A stretch of 64,000 bases of DNA, taken from a virus. Taxonomy: Duplodnaviria > Caudoviricetes. Made by a program: the position numbers and the translations under genes. Of the stretch, positions 38,169 to 46,141 are shown one piece after another (the first letter of the stretch is position 1; each line of letters begins with the position of its first letter). The notes below the pieces were generated by a model. It did no database searches and was not told the DNA's origin. It saw nothing but the letters and a program-made list of their open reading frames with translations. Where the stretch lies: IMG/VR virus record IMGVR_UViG_3300013901_000005, positions 1 to 64,000 of that record. The stretch is one strand, 5' to 3'.

Positions 38169-41100
38169 ATGTTAGTTGCTAGTTTTACATCAAGAATCCC
38201 TACAATGGGTGAAGTTGTTTGCCCATTTAAAATTCTGTGGATTGCTGGGAACCCTCCGATATACTAACATATTTTATTTGGGTAATCAGCAGCCTAGTAT
38301 TTTTAAATAAAGGTTCAACGACTACTAAGCGCAGAATAATATAATGATATAGTCTGATCTTATAAAATGGTAAATTATAAGTTAACAAAATGCAAACTAA
38401 GACATATGAGGATTGGTCAAAGTATCTCGGTGCTCGTCCGAAGCGCCTGGGTGTTGTAGCCCGTATGTACACTGATAACACTTTGAGTTATCTTACCGAT
38501 GGTTTGCGTAATATTTTCTATAAGGATGAGAAGGCAAATACCTTCCAGATTTCTGATTCACTTCTTTTTGAGTGGCAGACAGAGGTAAATAATATTAAGC
38601 ATGTTGAGTTTGCTGACCGCCCGTCTACCGATGGCGCAAATGGTTCGGAAATCACAATGGCATTTGTCGAGAACTATTATAATAAGTTTGATATCTTCCG
38701 TATTGACGGAAGCCGTCAGCAGTGTATCGTAGTTTCTCATCCTATTCGCAAGCGTGATAAATATTTCCAATAATTGTCTCGCTTTAAATAAATTCTTTAA
38801 ATTGCTGGAAAGCATTTATTGTAACCAGCAGCGTGATTGTTGTAACAATAGCGTTCAACGACTAGATGAAAATCATAAATTAATTTTAAAAACTGAATTA
38901 CAAATGAAATATATAGTATTTTTAACAACCGGTCTGAAAACAAATAGAAATCTTGTAGGAGTGCATAAGACAAATACACCTGATATTTTTGATGGATATT
39001 TAGGAGATGGAGTTGAGGCAGACAAAGCCAGTTCATTTATGTATCCGAAATCAGCATTTCAGTATGACGTTAAGATGACCGGAAGTAAGAGTTACCGTAG
39101 AATAACCATTGCAACCTGCGATACATATAAGGAAGCCTGTGCTAAGGCAAATAAGATTATCGACAATATTATAGATGATACATCATATTATAATTTTGAA
39201 AGAATTGATTCCCGTACAGTATATCAGTATGATCTTGTTGGAAAGTTAAAGAGAAAATGGAATTTTATGGAAATTGCAGATTTCTATAATTATCCGCAGG
39301 AAAGAATTAAGTGCTTTATTGATTTAAAAGTATCTTTTTCCGATTCTTTTTGGTCTTTTGATAAGTATATTGATATTAATGAATATAATGATAATTTTAT
39401 AAATCATGTTACATATATTTATAATAAGAACGGGAAACTGATAAAGGTTTACAGCAATTATGATGATGCGATAAAGTTTTTAAATTGTCCGGTAAAACAG
39501 GCGCTGGATGCGATAAAGACACAGAGAGACATAAACGGATATTATATTTCCAATAAACTATACAGCCTTTTTGAACCGAAACCAAGGAGACAGAATAAGT
39601 CACAGATATTCCACGTTTATAAGGATACCGGGGAATATCTCGGAGCGTATAAAGGAAAGACCGTAATGAAGGTTATCAATCAACATTCATGGAAAAAGAT
39701 CTCGAATACTTTCAACCTATATGGTGGGTGGTATAAGGACTTTTATCTTTCACTGGTTACTGTGGATAAAATCCCAGAAAGGCCATGGAAAAAGAAGGTA
39801 GAGGTTTACGACAAGGATGGAAAGCTAATTGAGACTGTTTATAATCTAAATATACTTGGATCAAAATATAAAGTTCCTAAAAACAAAATTGTCGATATTC
39901 AGCAGGGAAATAAATATTATGGTGATTATATATTTAAATACTATAGTAAATGATATAGTCTAAATGAATTATTGGGAGCTCCAGGTACGTCTCATAGATA
40001 ATACCTATGATACTACCTTGGATCTCAATTATTGTAATCCGGGTGATACTACCACTTTCCAATCGGTAGCACAACCTGAATTAAGCGAGGAAGGCGAAGT
40101 AGTTGAAAATGAGTTACTTTCCTCCGTTAATATTAATATTTAACGAAAAATTAAATAAATATTCTTAATTGCTGGAAGGCTGAATTATGCTAATCAGCAG
40201 CGATTCTCTAAATAATAAACAAAGAGAACGTTCAACGACTAATCCAAATGGATGTAGGGGAGGTAACCCCGAAATGGAATAAATCTAAAATTTGAATACT
40301 GCGTCAAGGCAGGATATAAAAACGCAAAACAAGTCACCTTGGGCAAACGAAACGTTTGTAAAGGTTTTGTATTTAAATATTTAGATTAAGATATAGTCTG
40401 AACAATATGGAAACATATTGATTAACACAAATTGTACTCAAAGTTCCAGTCCAATATGGAACTTCATCGCAACTATATGACAACCTTCCGTTGTGACGCA
40501 AGCTGGTCTAGCCTCTACGCACTTCAGGAAGATGTATTTATGCGTATTGCTGACGATACGGATAAATCAAAGGGCGAAGGTGTTTACAAGATGTTGAAGA
40601 AGGAGAAGGAACTCCTCGATACATTTATGTACGCCATGAATACAGGGTTGAGAATAACAGCTCTGTCTAAATTCTTCTAATTGCTGGGAAAACCATTTAA
40701 TGGTTTATCAGCAGCTAAGATATTTAAATTAGTGGGAAACAATTTTTATATAATGTTCAACGACTATCCGAGTAAGGGTAGGTATTTAAAATACCAAAAT
40801 GGAGAATAATTTAAAATATATTGTATATCAAACAATAAATATAGTAAATAATAAAATATATATTGGAATCCACGGAACAAAAGATCCAATGAGATTTGAT
40901 GGATATATAGGAAATGGCGTTAATATAAATTATCCATCAACTTATATGAATCCAAAATTTCCATTTCAATTTGCAGTAAAAAAATATGGAACTTCAAATT
41001 TCAAAAGAAGTGTATTGTATATATATAATACAGAAATTGAAGCTCTTTTAAAAGAAGAGGAAATTGTAAATGAAGATTTTATAAAAAGGAACGACACATA

Positions 41101-44100
41101 TAATATTGCGATTGGCGGCAAAAAACGGCCATACGTTCCTATATACAATAAAATATATCAATTTAATGAAAACGGCAAATTATTAAAAGTATGGAATAAT
41201 ATTTATGAGATTTCTGATTTTTTTGAAACGTGGAAGCAATCAATTTATAGTGCAATTAATAATAAACAAAGATTGTATGGTTTTTATTGGAGTTATCAAA
41301 AAGAAATATGCATAAAAGATTTTTCAAATTCAAATAAAAACAGAAAGGTTTACCAATATTCAAAAGATGGAAAATGTATTGCAATTTATAATAGTATTGG
41401 AGAAGCTAGTAAGATTCTGAATATTTCTTCATCAAATATTATAAATAATGTAAACAATGGGTCTTTAACAAAAAACGATTATTATTTGTCATACAAATTA
41501 TATGATCAATATGTTTGTAGACCAAGAATGGATTTAAAAAATAAAATATTGTATTTGTATGATTTAGACGGAAATTTCATAAATAATACAACATCAAAAG
41601 ATTTCAAAAAAAAATACAATATTCATTCATATAAAGAATTAGAAAATGCAATATTAAACAATAAACCAATTCAAAAAAACCAAATAAAATTAGAAAAGTT
41701 TAATAAAATAGAAAAATATATTCCAATTAATAAAAAGAAAAAAGTTGAGATTTATAAAACAAATAGAGATTTTGTCGCAGAATTTGACAGTGTATCAAAT
41801 GCATGTAGACAATTAAAATTAGACCGCTCAACAATTTCAAAAATATTAAGAGGATGTGCCAAACGAACAAAAGGATATACAATTAAATATAAAAATTAAA
41901 GATATAGTCTACTCTTTATAGTAATATAAAGTATTTAAGTGTTATTAAATAAAGGAAATGTGGATTAATTAATAGTTCACAAAAAATTTCTCTAATTGCT
42001 GGAAAACCTTTAGTGAGACAACCAGCAGCTAAAAATGAAAATCATTTTGGGTTCAACGACTAATTGAAAAATAATAATAAATAAAAAGGGAAATAAATTA
42101 TGGAATATATAGTTTACAAAACAATAAATAAAATTAATAATAAATTTTATATAGGAGTTCACAAAACTGAAAATTCTAAAATATTTGATGGATATATAGG
42201 ATGTGGAATATATATTAATAAAGCAAAATATATCAAATCGCCAAATACATATTTTTTAAAAGCAATTAAAAAGTATGGTACTGATAATTTTTATAGAGTA
42301 GTTTTAAAATCTTTTAATAATTATAATGATGCTCTAGATCTGGAAAGATGGCTAGTTACTGAAAAGTTTATTAAAGATAATAATAATTATAATTCTGCTA
42401 TTGGTGGAGGGTTGTCTCCAAAAAATAATAAAGAAATATATCAATATGACTTAAATGGTAAATTAATTAAAAAGTGGAACTCTATGGTTGATATTAATAA
42501 TGCATTTAAAACCCATATTCAAATGAGTTATATTATTAATAATAGAAGAAGTTTTGCCGGATTTCTTTGGTCATTTAATAAGAATATAAATATTGATGAG
42601 TATATTTTGCATAATAATAGAGGGTTTATATCTCAATATGATTCTAAATTTAATTTTATCAGAAAATTTAAATCTTCTAAAGAAGCATCTAAAATTTTAA
42701 ACATACCCTTAGGATCAATAATTTCTAGTGTTTTTAGAAGAAAAAAAATAGACGGTTTTTATTTTTTAAAAGCTGATTTTGATATTGACGAACTTTTTAA
42801 AGATGAAATAAATTATGTTTATCGACAAACAAAAATATTTCAATATAATGATGATGGGGACTTTATAAATGTATATAAATCGATTTTAAATTGTTCAAAA
42901 GAATTAAATTTATCCTATAATAAAATAAAAGAAATTATTAATAAAAAGGAAAAGTTTAATAATTATTATTTATCATATAGATATGATACATCATATTTTA
43001 ATATAAAATTTCCAAATAAAAAAGTAATAATAAAAGTTTTGCAATATGATAAAAATAATCGGTTTATTAAAGAATGGGATGATATTAAACAATTATTAAA
43101 AGAATACCCAGAAGCACTAAAAGTTTGTAGAAACAAATTAAAGACACATAAAAATTATATATTCAAATATAAAATAATTTAAAGATATAGTCTGATCTTT
43201 GCAGTAATGTAAAGTTAACATAAATGGTTAATGGCAAGGCAACAATCGTAGAGCCTGATACTCAGAGACCTATAAAAATATATGTAGGGGTAATCAGTGA
43301 TGATTATTATAAAATCTTTTGAATTGCTGGAAATCCAAATGGATAATCAGCAGCTATATTGATATATCAGTAAAGTTCAGAGACTATCCGGTTATGGAAT
43401 ACATAAAATATGGAAGCAAAAGATAACTCATAAAAATTAAATAAAGTAATTTATGAAATATATAGTATATTGTACAATAAATTTAATTAATAATAAAATT
43501 TATATTGGAGTTCACAAAATTGATCCCAAACAAGTTAATGATTATTATTTAGGTTGTGGATGTTTTAGCAATAGTCCAAAATCGTATAATAAAAGAAATA
43601 CTGCTTTTTGCTGTGCAGTCTCAAAATATGGGCCATCAAATTTTAAAAGGGAGACAATTAAAGAATTTGACACATTAGAAGAGGCGCTTGAACTAGAAAA
43701 AGAAATTGTTAATAAAACATTCCTAAAAAGAAAAGATATTTATAACCAAATAGAAGGTGGTGGTTATCCACCAACTTTAGAAAAAAAAGTGTATCAATAT
43801 AATTTAAATGGATACTTTATGATGGAATGGAAATCTATAAAATCTATTACTAATTATTTTAATATAAATAAAGATAGAATAAATATGGTTATAAAATCAA
43901 AACGATCTTTTAATGCTTGTTATTGGTCATATAAATACGTAATACGCTTAGATACCTCTAATTATCGACCGAGTTCAAGAGGCAGTATAAGAGTCTTTTC
44001 TAAAGATAAAAAATTATTATATAATTTTGAGAATACAACAAAAGCAGCAGAATTTTTAAATATTAGACGAGAAAAAATAACAAATGCTATATATGGTAAA

Positions 44101-46141
44101 TATGCAACAAATAATTATTATTTTTTAAAAGAAGACGAAGATATTGAAACATATTTAAGTAAAAATAATAAAAATCAACATATATTTCAATATGATGAAA
44201 ATGGAAGTTTATTAAACGAATATAACAATGTTGCAGAAATAAGAAAAAATATAAATATAATAAAAATGATTTAAAAAGAGCAGTTAAAAATAATAGTTTA
44301 TTAAATGGTTTTTATTGGTCTTATTTTAAATGTAATAACATATTAAATAATGAGTTAATGATATAGTCCGACACTACTAGTAATAGTAGATAACAGAGAA
44401 TGATATATAGGCGAGGGAGCAATCCCTCAGATTGAGGCCGCAGCCAACAAATACGTTTATAATGACAAGCCCAGTCTGCCGTTGTTCAATATGATTATGG
44501 CAGATATGTCAGACAAGTGTCAGAGCGATACAGGCAATCACTACGCTTTTGTGGTGAATCGAATTCTTTGGAATGATATTAACCTCGTTCTTGGTGAGTT
44601 CCTTTCACACTATCGCACTGATGGTTCATTTATGTACTCAAAGTCAGCTAACCAGGGCAAGGGTGGTTACGTAAAAGTAGGTGCCACATATGATACATAT
44701 GAGTTCGCTAGTTAATGCCGGCGAATAAAAATTTATTAAATTGCTGGAAAATTATATAAAAATATAAACTATAACATAATTGGAAACAGTATGTGTGAAT
44801 GTTTAAAAATTATATTTTATAATAACCAGCAGCAAACTTCCTAAACAATAAAATTGCATGGAAGCTGTTCAACGACTATTTTAACAAAATAAGAAATATC
44901 TAAAAGAATAAACGTTATGAATTTAAAATATATATTATACATTACAATTAATACTATTAATGGAAAGTTTTATATTGGTGTACATAAAACAAATCCAGAA
45001 GTTTTTGATGGATATATTGGAAATGGAATATATCGTCAATCAGAAGCTGTGAAAAATACACCATTCCATAAAGCAGTAAAGAAATATGGGTATGATAATT
45101 TTAAAAGAACTATTATAAAAATTTTTCCATTTGATGAACAAGGATATACTGATGCATATAAATTAGAATCAATTTTAGTTAATGAAACTTTATTAAAAAA
45201 CAAAAATTGTTATAATTGTTCACTAGGCGGATTTGGTAGTATAAATAATGATAATTTAAAAAAAATTTATAAATTTGATTTAAATGGAAATTATTTAAGA
45301 AGTTTTAAGTCTGTTAGAGAAGCTGCTTTATCTATTAATCCAGAAAACATTTATAATACAATCAAATCAATAAGAAATAATTGTTTAGGTATATCAAAAA
45401 GTAGTTTTGGATATTATTGGAGCTATATAAAGCAATTTAATTATTCAAATAACAATAGCAAAAAAATATCTCAATATACTTTATCTGGAAAATTTATTAA
45501 AAACTATAATAGTATTGAAGAAGCACAATTTGATTTACATTTAAATTCAATTGCATAGGCGATTTCAAAGCATTATAATTGTGGAGGTTTTCAATGGAGA
45601 TTTTATAATGGATCTACAAAAGATATCACTCCTTTAATAAACGAACGAAATAAGAATAAAATATTACCAATATTAATGATAGATATAAAAACTGGAAATA
45701 CAAAAAAATATAGTAGTATTCAAGAATGTGTAATAAAAAATCCTCAATTAAGAAAAACTCAAATAAACAGAGTTATAAAAAAAATAATTAAGTCACATAA
45801 AGGATTTTATTTTAAATATGATAACGATAATATAGTCTAAATTGGGCAACTCTATAACCTTTATGGTTGATAGAGCACTCACTCGCGAATATCCTACAAA
45901 GGGATATGGTGTATGTATCGACTTGACCGCTGACAAGACAACTGGTATGCCAGCTATTGGCAAATTTAGTCTTACCGGAAAAGACTTTATGACAAATAAG
46001 GTCATTGGTGTAGGCGGTTATGACGGAAAAACCTCTGGTGAGGTAGCCAGCAATGTGGCTGGCAGTAAGCTGATAATGAGTGGGTATGCAGGTATTGCAT
46101 GCTTTGCTCCGTATCGTTCAGTTATTTTGCGTCAGGCTTAA
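38169..46141 (+). CDS. Major capsid protein, 475 aa, spliced from 8 exons: 38169-38210, 38393-38758, 39967-40095, 40435-40648, 41940-41965, 43227-43273, 44403-44709, 45845-46141
   Basis: Exons total 1428 nt and give one open frame: MLVASFTSRIPTMG|QTKTYEDW..RKRD|NYWELQ..ELSEEG|YSKFQSN..NTGL|LLNKGNVD|VNGKATI..RPI|YIGEGAIPQ..YEFA|GNSITF..ILRQA. Resembles crAss-like MCP and follows the scaffold gene. Confidence 0.88.
38211..38392 (+). mobile_element. MCP group I intron 1 (182 nt, no ORF)
   Basis: P1 AATGGGT/GCCCATT; core ATTGCTGGGA, AATCAGCAG, GTTCAACGACTA, GATATAGTCT; terminal G. Confidence 0.9.
38759..39966 (+). mobile_element. MCP group I intron 2
   Basis: P1 AGCGTGAT/GTCTCGCT; P10 CCAATAATT/AATTATTGG; full core motifs. 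Confidence 0.9.
38904..39953 (+). CDS. Intron 2 GIY-YIG/NUMOD-family protein with degenerate active-site motifs (349 aa)
   Basis: MKYIVFLTTGLKTNRNLVGVHKT..FDGYLGDG; VYQYDLVGKL-type NUMOD1 repeats. Confidence 0.75.
   Translation: MKYIVFLTTGLKTNRNLVGVHKTNTPDIFDGYLGDGVEADKASSFMYPKSAFQYDVKMTGSKSYRRITIATCDTYKEACAKANKIIDNIIDDTSYYNFERIDSRTVYQYDLVGKLKRKWNFMEIADFYNYPQERIKCFIDLKVSFSDSFWSFDKYIDINEYNDNFINHVTYIYNKNGKLIKVYSNYDDAIKFLNCPVKQALDAIKTQRDINGYYISNKLYSLFEPKPRRQNKSQIFHVYKDTGEYLGAYKGKTVMKVINQHSWKKISNTFNLYGGWYKDFYLSLVTVDKIPERPWKKKVEVYDKDGKLIETVYNLNILGSKYKVPKNKIVDIQQGNKYYGDYIFKYYSK
40096..40434 (+). mobile_element. MCP group I intron 3 (339 nt, endonuclease remnant)
   Basis: Core motifs present; P1 GAGGAAGGC/ACTTTCCTC; residual ..LGKRNVCKGFVFKYLD* before GATATAGTCT. 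Confidence 0.85.
40649..41939 (+). mobile_element. MCP group I intron 4
   Basis: P1 ACAGGGT/GCTCTGT; P10 AATAACA/TGTTATT; core motifs. Confidence 0.9.
40799..41899 (+). CDS. Intron 4 GIY-YIG homing endonuclease with NUMOD1 repeats
   Basis: YIVYQTINIVNNKIYIGIH..FDGYIGNG..KEEEIV..YN; VYQYSKDGK repeats. Confidence 0.85.
   Translation: MENNLKYIVYQTINIVNNKIYIGIHGTKDPMRFDGYIGNGVNINYPSTYMNPKFPFQFAVKKYGTSNFKRSVLYIYNTEIEALLKEEEIVNEDFIKRNDTYNIAIGGKKRPYVPIYNKIYQFNENGKLLKVWNNIYEISDFFETWKQSIYSAINNKQRLYGFYWSYQKEICIKDFSNSNKNRKVYQYSKDGKCIAIYNSIGEASKILNISSSNIINNVNNGSLTKNDYYLSYKLYDQYVCRPRMDLKNKILYLYDLDGNFINNTTSKDFKKKYNIHSYKELENAILNNKPIQKNQIKLEKFNKIEKYIPINKKKKVEIYKTNRDFVAEFDSVSNACRQLKLDRSTISKILRGCAKRTKGYTIKYKN
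41966..43226 (+). mobile_element. MCP group I intron 5
   Basis: P1 TGTGGAT/GTTCACA; core motifs; terminal G. Confidence 0.9.
42100..43182 (+). CDS. Intron 5 GIY-YIG homing endonuclease with NUMOD1 repeats
   Basis: YIVYKTINKINNKFYIGVH..DGYIGCG..LERWLV..YN. Confidence 0.85.
   Translation: MEYIVYKTINKINNKFYIGVHKTENSKIFDGYIGCGIYINKAKYIKSPNTYFLKAIKKYGTDNFYRVVLKSFNNYNDALDLERWLVTEKFIKDNNNYNSAIGGGLSPKNNKEIYQYDLNGKLIKKWNSMVDINNAFKTHIQMSYIINNRRSFAGFLWSFNKNINIDEYILHNNRGFISQYDSKFNFIRKFKSSKEASKILNIPLGSIISSVFRRKKIDGFYFLKADFDIDELFKDEINYVYRQTKIFQYNDDGDFINVYKSILNCSKELNLSYNKIKEIINKKEKFNNYYLSYRYDTSYFNIKFPNKKVIIKVLQYDKNNRFIKEWDDIKQLLKEYPEALKVCRNKLKTHKNYIFKYKII
43274..44402 (+). mobile_element. MCP group I intron 6
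   Basis: P1 CCTAT/GTAGG; P10 ATATAT; core AATTGCTGGAA, AATCAGCAG, GTTCAGAGACTA, GATATAGTCC. Confidence 0.9.
43453..44274 (+). CDS. Intron 6 GIY-YIG homing endonuclease; last NUMOD repeat frameshifted near 44244-44249
   Basis: YIVYCTINLINNKIYIGVH..; the -1 frame continues KYKYNKNDLKRAVKNNSLLNGFYWSY. Confidence 0.8.
   Translation: MKYIVYCTINLINNKIYIGVHKIDPKQVNDYYLGCGCFSNSPKSYNKRNTAFCCAVSKYGPSNFKRETIKEFDTLEEALELEKEIVNKTFLKRKDIYNQIEGGGYPPTLEKKVYQYNLNGYFMMEWKSIKSITNYFNINKDRINMVIKSKRSFNACYWSYKYVIRLDTSNYRPSSRGSIRVFSKDKKLLYNFENTTKAAEFLNIRREKITNAIYGKYATNNYYFLKEDEDIETYLSKNNKNQHIFQYDENGSLLNEYNNVAEIRKNINIIKMI
44710..45844 (+). mobile_element. MCP group I intron 7
   Basis: P1 TTCGCT/GGCGAA; P10 TGCC/GGCA; core motifs; terminal G. 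Confidence 0.9.
44917..45840 (+). CDS. Intron 7 GIY-YIG homing endonuclease (307 aa, one TAG)
   Basis: ORF 44917..45558 reads through TAG into AISKHYNCGGFQWRF..SHKGFYFKY to TAA 45840. Confidence 0.85.

Follow-up and report, generated by a model that had tools for sequence, protein, structure and literature searches.

The DNA analysed here is a stretch of 64,000 nucleotides (hereafter, the window; IMG/VR record IMGVR_UViG_3300013901_000005) that covers the initial 64 kb of a single-contig genome of 155,233 bases, probably from a crAss-like gut phage, and contains a major capsid protein gene interrupted by group I introns. At the 5′ splice site, a U.G pair is almost universal in group I introns. 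At this position, the third intron of the capsid gene (intron 3) presents a C.A pair, formed by C40095, the last nucleotide of exon 3, and A40116 in the internal guide sequence. Intron 3 is very probably a functional phage IA-type intron, formerly mobile with a GIY-YIG homing endonuclease, that splices via C(−1).A in place of U.G. Orthologous introns at this one site carry U.G in some cases and C.A in others, without any Watson-Crick intermediate among those seen, and constitute a natural experiment on a pair whose role has so far been worked out almost wholly with mutants of one ribozyme.

The C.A 5′ splice-site pair of intron 3

The exon boundaries of intron 3 were established by comparison with uninterrupted homologs. 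Eleven intronless capsid genes (loci L001, L005, L006, L007, L008, L010, L013, L015, L017, L018, and L019) read ...PE(L/A)(S/H)EEG-Y(S/V/T)K(F/Y)QS... without gaps, matching PELSEEG and YSKFQS in the window, and therefore the junction 40095|40435 is fixed at the protein level. The cleavage position after GGC (40095) that an initial annotation of this DNA had deduced from frame and protein continuity is thus borne out. The predicted spliced junction reads ...GAGGAAGGC|UACUCAAAG.... When all in-frame, stop-free junctions with G as the last intron base were listed, only 40095|40435 reproduced the conserved peptide, aside from a shift to G40094/G40434 that encodes the same protein. Junctions with U at position −1 (40077, 40104, 40110, and 40119, the last two inside the guide) delete, insert, or substitute residues, and no alternative junction at a U fits the conserved protein.

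The 5′ strand of the P1 helix (40087..40097, + strand, as are all the intron 3 features given below) consists of the exon sequence GAGGAAGGC (40087-40095) and the intron nucleotides GA, with the cut between 40095 and 40096. Its 3′ strand is the internal guide sequence UUACUUUCCUC (40114..40124), in which ACTTTCCTC occupies positions 40116-40124 and the paired guide stretch is ACUUUCCUC. From 5′ to 3′, the exon pairs are G-C, A-U, G-C, G-C, A-U, A-U, G.U, and G-C, followed by C40095 opposite A40116. The helix continues past C/A on the intron side with G40096.U40115 and A40097-U40114, so that P1 comprises 8 exon pairs, the C.A, and 2 intron pairs. The minimum-free-energy structure obtained with RNAfold was the same helix, with C/A as a 1x1 internal loop. 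Both the sequence and the continuous helix agree with the placement of C opposite A in the initial annotation. Examination by hand of P1 registers pairing C40095 with G40113 or G40126 led to their rejection, as they need 3-nucleotide bulges or form only 2-3 pairs. A competing hairpin, GUAGUU/AGUUAC (40099-40104 with 40112-40117), would provide a U40103.G40113 pair, and was also discarded because no omega-G position restores the frame.

Reading by hand of the six other introns of the capsid gene revealed U.G in all of them, with 5′ splice sites after positions 38210, 38758, 40648, 41965, 43273, and 44709. The initial annotation was right that every other intron shows U.G; its count of seven has to be corrected to six, since the window contains seven introns in total. 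A search of the window for an eighth intron found none.

The two bases were also examined in independent assemblies. A 59-residue open reading frame (ORF) running from exon 3 into the intron was indexed in 28 blocks of public assemblies, and 23 contigs were read. Because GGN and TTR codons are synonymous, ten loci were checked as DNA. These loci, from ten samples (ENA, JGI, and Logan), all carry GGC together with guide A. Over 39964-40440 they depart from the window at only 0-3 further positions, and coverage is 13-30x for some contigs. GGT with guide G, the arrangement that the initial annotation had set against its own reading, was found in none of them. The C.A allele is not rare, as it is present in many independent metagenomes.

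Orthologous introns and the origin of the C.A pair

A search with exon 2 identified 19 related capsid loci in IMG/VR, several of them with an intron at exactly the EEG|Y site. A pattern derived from a conserved intron stretch retrieved 18 IMG/VR stretches, all with exon ...GGU and guide G, and removal of duplicates left 16 distinct U.G introns. A scan of metagenomes for the guide-A state only produced 37 matches; 34 of these lacked the intron core and were dismissed as chance, and the other 3 were real introns, all with exon GGC (L072, L044, and L045). No match was obtained in a DNA search of a phage collection with the intron or with the 20 kb around it. The resulting 20 distinct orthologous introns comprise 16 with U.G and 4 with C.A (the window and the three metagenomic contigs, found by the scan for guide A), and never U/A or C/G. 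This 16/4 co-occurrence of U with G and of C with A, in the absence of mixed states, is beyond chance.

In the column alignment with the IMG/VR orthologs, C for U and A for G were present only in the window. The closest comparison is provided by L037 (the same intron as in L012 and L022), whose exon GAGGAAGGU and guide GCUUUCCUC equal the P1 of the window except at these two bases. Together with the status of the gene as the sole capsid gene of the genome, these U.G orthologs at the same site substantiate the proposal of a natural double substitution in an essential gene. The three C.A contigs show increasing divergence from the window in the flanking DNA, with identities of 84-95% for L072, 76-91% for L044, and 65-73% for L045. 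L072 is a 162-kb contig with 111x coverage. The 963-nucleotide intron of L044 contains an intact GIY-YIG ORF of 237 amino acids, and therefore this C.A intron is probably still mobile. L045 presents a different P1, GAAGAGGGC with ACUCUCUUC, and a TAG lies in frame at one of the Gln positions of its capsid gene.

The exon strand of P1 corresponds to three codons, whose synonymous third positions (−7, −4, and −1) all vary, with covariation of the guide. At positions −7 and −4 the guide follows Watson-Crick rules (G-C to A-U and A-U to G-C), and in L036 the covariation includes position −6, with a non-synonymous exon change (Glu to Lys). At position −1, on the other hand, all four C-bearing introns have A as the guide partner and not the old G. 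Since a C facing that G would have formed a stronger, Watson-Crick pair without further change, the switch of the guide from G to A suggests selection for wobble geometry. These data suggest that the shape of the pair, and not its letters, is under selection, and provide evolutionary support for the wobble shape as a selected feature. The glycine codon is mostly GGT in the intronless alleles, with GGC in L018 and GGA in L001, revealing standing variation at this position.

To place the change of pair among the orthologs, a tree was built from 221 ribozyme columns outside P1. The window, L072, and L044 formed a clade (97/100), and the C.A introns were nested with the U.G introns L009, L028, L033, and L037 in a group supported by 99/97, where L045 appeared as a long branch. 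Parsimony gave two changes, and a single origin, with a log-likelihood difference of 1.07 and a p-AU of 0.11, was not rejected. According to this tree, the switch from U.G to C.A would have occurred once or twice. FastTree placed L045 beside L026 and L032, two introns devoid of the endonuclease gene, with a weak support of 0.52; this grouping was not reproduced by IQ-TREE and was not retained.

Proposed splicing mechanism, alternatives and known systems

The proposed mechanism consists of the usual two transesterifications, in which the 5′ exon end would pair with the internal guide sequence to form P1. An external guanosine would attack after C40095, the P10 helix would align the 3′ exon, and the exons would be joined after omega-G 40434. 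Two substitutions would account for the altered pair, a synonymous change of GGU to GGC in the glycine codon and a change of G to A in the guide. The working form is most likely an A+.C wobble, with the adenine N1 protonated and the same shape as G.U, which would present the scissile phosphate as G.U does. Protonation of A40116 and any pH dependence would be expectations from chemistry, the rate and the fidelity of the reaction may also be affected, and the protonated pair might make splicing pH-sensitive, a chemically reasonable hypothesis of the initial annotation. We infer splicing in vivo from the presence of only one capsid gene, the conservation of the core, the abundance of the allele, and the precedent in engineered ribozymes.

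The G.U pair of the Tetrahymena ribozyme has a guanine whose 2-amino group docks into J4/5. This group has been credited with a docking contribution of at least 2 kcal/mol, to which the transition state adds about 1 kcal/mol (PMC13692252, in a summary of Strobel and Cech and of Knitt et al.). The unusually long P1 (8 exon and 2 intron pairs) and the adjacent P10 may offset the loss of this contact in intron 3. Examination of J4/5 and J5/4 revealed no compensating change, the window being identical there to the U.G intron L033. In the same comparison, L044 and L045 shared CGAUC where other introns have CAAUC or UAAUC, and CGAUC was missing from the window and L072, so that no consistent correlate of the C.A state emerged.

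Several considerations weigh against the proposal of a functional C.A pair. The covariation rests on few events (one or two independent origins), and there is a non-negligible probability that, among the more closely related C.A introns, both bases were just never changed. Since A.C has no guanine 2-amino group, the reaction could lose speed or accuracy. Finally, at pH values close to neutral, adenine N1 is in most contexts protonated only in part.

It could be argued that C/A is just an unpaired 1x1 loop, with the splice site set by helix length and tertiary contacts and the two bases carried along as a neutral or slightly deleterious hitch-hiker without any pH dependence. The RNAfold structure, with a 1x1 loop in a stable helix, would be compatible with this idea; the long P1 and P10 could define the site by themselves, and the identity of J4/5 and J5/4 in the window and in the U.G intron L033 means that no compensation in the receptor is visible. 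We consider this explanation unlikely in view of the change of guide G to A in all four C introns, which would be needless if geometry were irrelevant, of the lack of U/A or C/G states in the 20 distinct orthologs, and of the reactivity of the engineered c-A pair, second only to u-G (PMC11417360). A different type of objection concerns the position of the cut, which could be shifted to G40094 and joined to G40434 (GGG UAC, Gly-Tyr) or moved to a cryptic site after U40104 (with addition of Glu-Val-Val). The one-base GG|...U|G shift encodes the same protein and would be invisible to the protein alignment, and a shift of this size at the 5′ site has been reported for group B IStrons (PMC4227781). 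Such a shift, however, would convert the omega-G into a U and place the cut after a Watson-Crick G-C pair, whereas the homologous positions show the canonical U|...G| in 16 out of 16 distinct U.G orthologs, whose 3′ ends are almost the same. As for U40104, it lacks a guide G partner and its use would lengthen by three residues a peptide whose length is invariant. Altogether, a displaced cut appears very unlikely.

The intron could also be defective in splicing, in which case the genome would be dead or a helper-dependent variant. The deletion of the endonuclease gene does reveal some decay. This possibility is nevertheless hardly tenable for an allele present in at least 10 samples, with contig coverage up to 30x (111x for L072), with a conserved ribozyme core in the one capsid gene available, and with C.A maintained in diverged phages. 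Sequencing or assembly errors can be discarded with practical certainty, since both bases recur in ten assemblies (ENA, JGI, and Logan) obtained independently, whose DNA is nearly identical, as well as in three diverged contigs. Beyond the functional C.A pair itself, a more ambitious proposal would be that a mobile-intron lineage has become stably A.C, with splicing of the capsid pre-mRNA and virion production tuned by intracellular pH or ions, given that the A.C wobble requires a proton and does not make the guanine amino contact, or that the GGC/A allele provides its carriers with another homing-endonuclease target or immunity specificity when co-infecting phages compete; we find this rather improbable.

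Mutants of the Tetrahymena intron engineered to have C.A at the splice site were reportedly studied in 1989 by Doudna, Cormack and Szostak. In engineered Tetrahymena constructs, c-A supported precise two-step splicing at a level of at least 54% and was described as surpassed in reactivity only by u-G (PMC11417360), in line with the statement in the initial annotation that C.A, an isosteric wobble, is functional in mutant ribozymes. The engineered C.A forms, including the P1-cA circularisation construct (PMC11417360), have the same pair at the same position as the window. These are laboratory constructs, whereas the pair in the window is natural, belongs to an essential viral gene, and occurs in diverged phages and many samples, with orthologs documenting the switch. 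The pattern of U.G and C.A in nature agrees with mutagenesis, in which the engineered c-A splices precisely. No natural C.A pair at a splice site turned up in the full-text literature searched, which does not cover several classic papers, so a prior description is possible.

The phage IA introns (td, nrdB, and sunY of T4, and orf142 of Staphylococcus phage Twort) have in common with intron 3 the P1-P10 architecture, a guide pairing with both exons, and the omega-G, as well as the core elements GUUCAACGACUA and GAUAUAGUC, an endonuclease ORF in a peripheral loop, and an insertion site within a codon that is conserved in an essential gene. Unlike them, intron 3 has C.A and not U.G, and its endonuclease is reduced to the last 29 codons. 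Hur and Waring (1995, Nucleic Acids Res 23:4466) are said to have described group I introns of natural origin in which the 5′ splice site has C.G. In those introns the last exon base is C, as in the window, but its partner is G, in a Watson-Crick pair, whereas the guide A of the window forms a wobble-shaped pair. Group B IStrons maintain the U.G pair and are cut one base away (PMC4227781). They represent, like the window, a natural exception to the 5′ exon ending in U; in the window it is the pair that is replaced, with the cut position unchanged.

If intron 3 is spliced as proposed, the guanine 2-amino contact would be dispensable in a natural intron of an essential gene. The worth of this contact could be measured with matched pairs of natural ribozymes, such as the window or L044 against L028 or L037. 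A recent preprint counts the requirement for U at position −1 among the key constraints on programmable trans-splicing ribozymes (PMC13692252). A scaffold from nature that takes C at −1 with an ordinary adenine, as intron 3 would be, could serve as a starting point for ribozyme engineering.

Architecture of intron 3 and organization of the capsid gene

Intron 3 (40096..40434) is a group I intron of 339 nucleotides ending in omega-G 40434, as delimited by Rfam RF00028 and the alignment of orthologs. The match to RF00028 (40095-40420) scored 68.3 bits against a gathering score of 50 and covered model positions 1-253, the full model. P10 is formed by the guide segment UGAGU (40110..40114), just 5′ of the P1 segment of the guide, and ACUCA of exon 4 (40436-40440), giving five perfect pairs with bases 2-6 of this exon; P10 covaries, with five versions among the orthologs. 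A P2 hairpin (40126..40144) precedes the catalytic core (40160..40281), which was defined by the Rfam alignment, P4-P6 covariation, and motif positions. Within the core, P3 pairs 40160-40165 with 40276-40281, P4-P5 occupies 40170-40199, P6 occupies 40200-40231, and J6/7 with the 5′ strand of P7 lies at 40232-40241 (GUUCAACGACUA). The 3′ part of the ribozyme (40380..40434) includes the 3′ strand of P8, J8/7 with the 3′ strand of P7 (40390-40398, GAUAUAGUC), and the P9 hairpin with a GAAA loop (40403-40420), followed by a 14-nucleotide tail to the omega-G. P7 (GACUA/UAGUC), J6/7, and J8/7 are the same or nearly the same across the orthologs, and the P4-P6 and P9 helices show compensatory changes. 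By these sequence features, intron 3 is a bona fide member of group I in every respect tested except the U.G pair.

A remnant of a GIY-YIG homing endonuclease is located in P8 (40300..40389), where the last 29 codons (CVKAGYKNAKQV...FKYLD) and the stop remain; the window intron thus has no intact endonuclease ORF. Intact GIY-YIG ORFs of 237 and 240 amino acids are present in the orthologs L044 (C.A) and L028 (U.G), respectively, and therefore the window intron arose from a mobile intron by deletion. The orthologs L026, L032, L045, and L072 are also short (266-331 nucleotides) in comparison with the 963-996 nucleotides of most orthologs, and the endonuclease gene was apparently lost several times.

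The capsid gene extends over 38169-46141 and has eight exons and seven group I introns. Comparison with intronless homologs by tblastn placed exons 1-4 at 38169-38210, 38393-38758, 39967-40095, and 40435-40648, and exons 5-8 at 41940-41965, 43227-43273, 44403-44709, and 45845-46141, with a total exon length of 1428 nucleotides. Exon 3 (39967..40095, + strand, 129 nucleotides) encodes NYWELQ...PELSEEG and ends in C40095, the −1 nucleotide of the 5′ splice site, and exon 4 (40435..40648, + strand) starts with YSKFQSNMEL, its positions 40436-40440 forming P10. Around 82% of 38169-46141 is intron, and three of the exons are micro-exons of 42, 26, and 47 nucleotides; the one of 26 nucleotides (41940-41965) must serve both P10 of intron 4 and P1 of intron 5.

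Searches with single exons of the window against Pfam and PHROG profiles gave no useful match, and for this reason the gene was identified through the intronless homolog L001 (MT835470, a human faecal phage record; 473 amino acids), which is 42-62% identical to the window exons. This protein matched Pfam PF23898 "Crassvirus major capsid protein" (Crass_capsid) with 52.2 bits over a cut-off of 27, and also PHROG 11589, major head protein. A tblastn search of the whole 155-kb genome with a full-length homolog detected only these eight exons, and therefore this is the sole capsid gene of the genome.

The genome size, the intron load, and the TAG-recoded relatives are consistent with the Zeta group of crAss-like phages. 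Members of this group have genomes of 145-192 kb, as many as 14 introns of group I, and the capsid gene in many fragments (Yutin et al. 2021, PMC7886860), in agreement with the genome size and the intron-split capsid gene seen here; the TAG recoding of these phages is also found in the relatives detected here. In that paper's account of the introns, detection relied on endonuclease domains and the splice-site pairs were not part of the analysis (PMC7886860), whereas here the pair itself was analysed.

In-frame stops in place of the Gln of other phages were observed in capsid exons of L006, L009, L014, L016, L018, and L045 (e.g., YSKF*SQ and VA*PELSEEG, with TAG), consistent with the TAG-to-Gln recoding of crAss-like phages; the capsid exons of the window contain none. 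Within the window, the GIY-YIG endonuclease ORF of intron 7 (44893-45840) has one in-frame TAG (45556-45558), which may indicate a pseudogene or else a relic of, or an adaptation to, a TAG-recoded background. The alignment of L072 with the window jumps from 40650 to 43211, without introns 4 and 5 of the window, and therefore the intron content of the capsid gene varies between close relatives. L003 (11690-11890) and L004 (11690-13040), the closest loci to the window in exon 2 (96-97%), have no intron at EEG|Y and carry an unrelated group I intron 9 nucleotides upstream of this site, apparently as ...TTGTCT|...ATG|GAAGAAGGATAC. Two different introns thus occupy neighbouring insertion sites in the same capsid codons in these loci and in the window.

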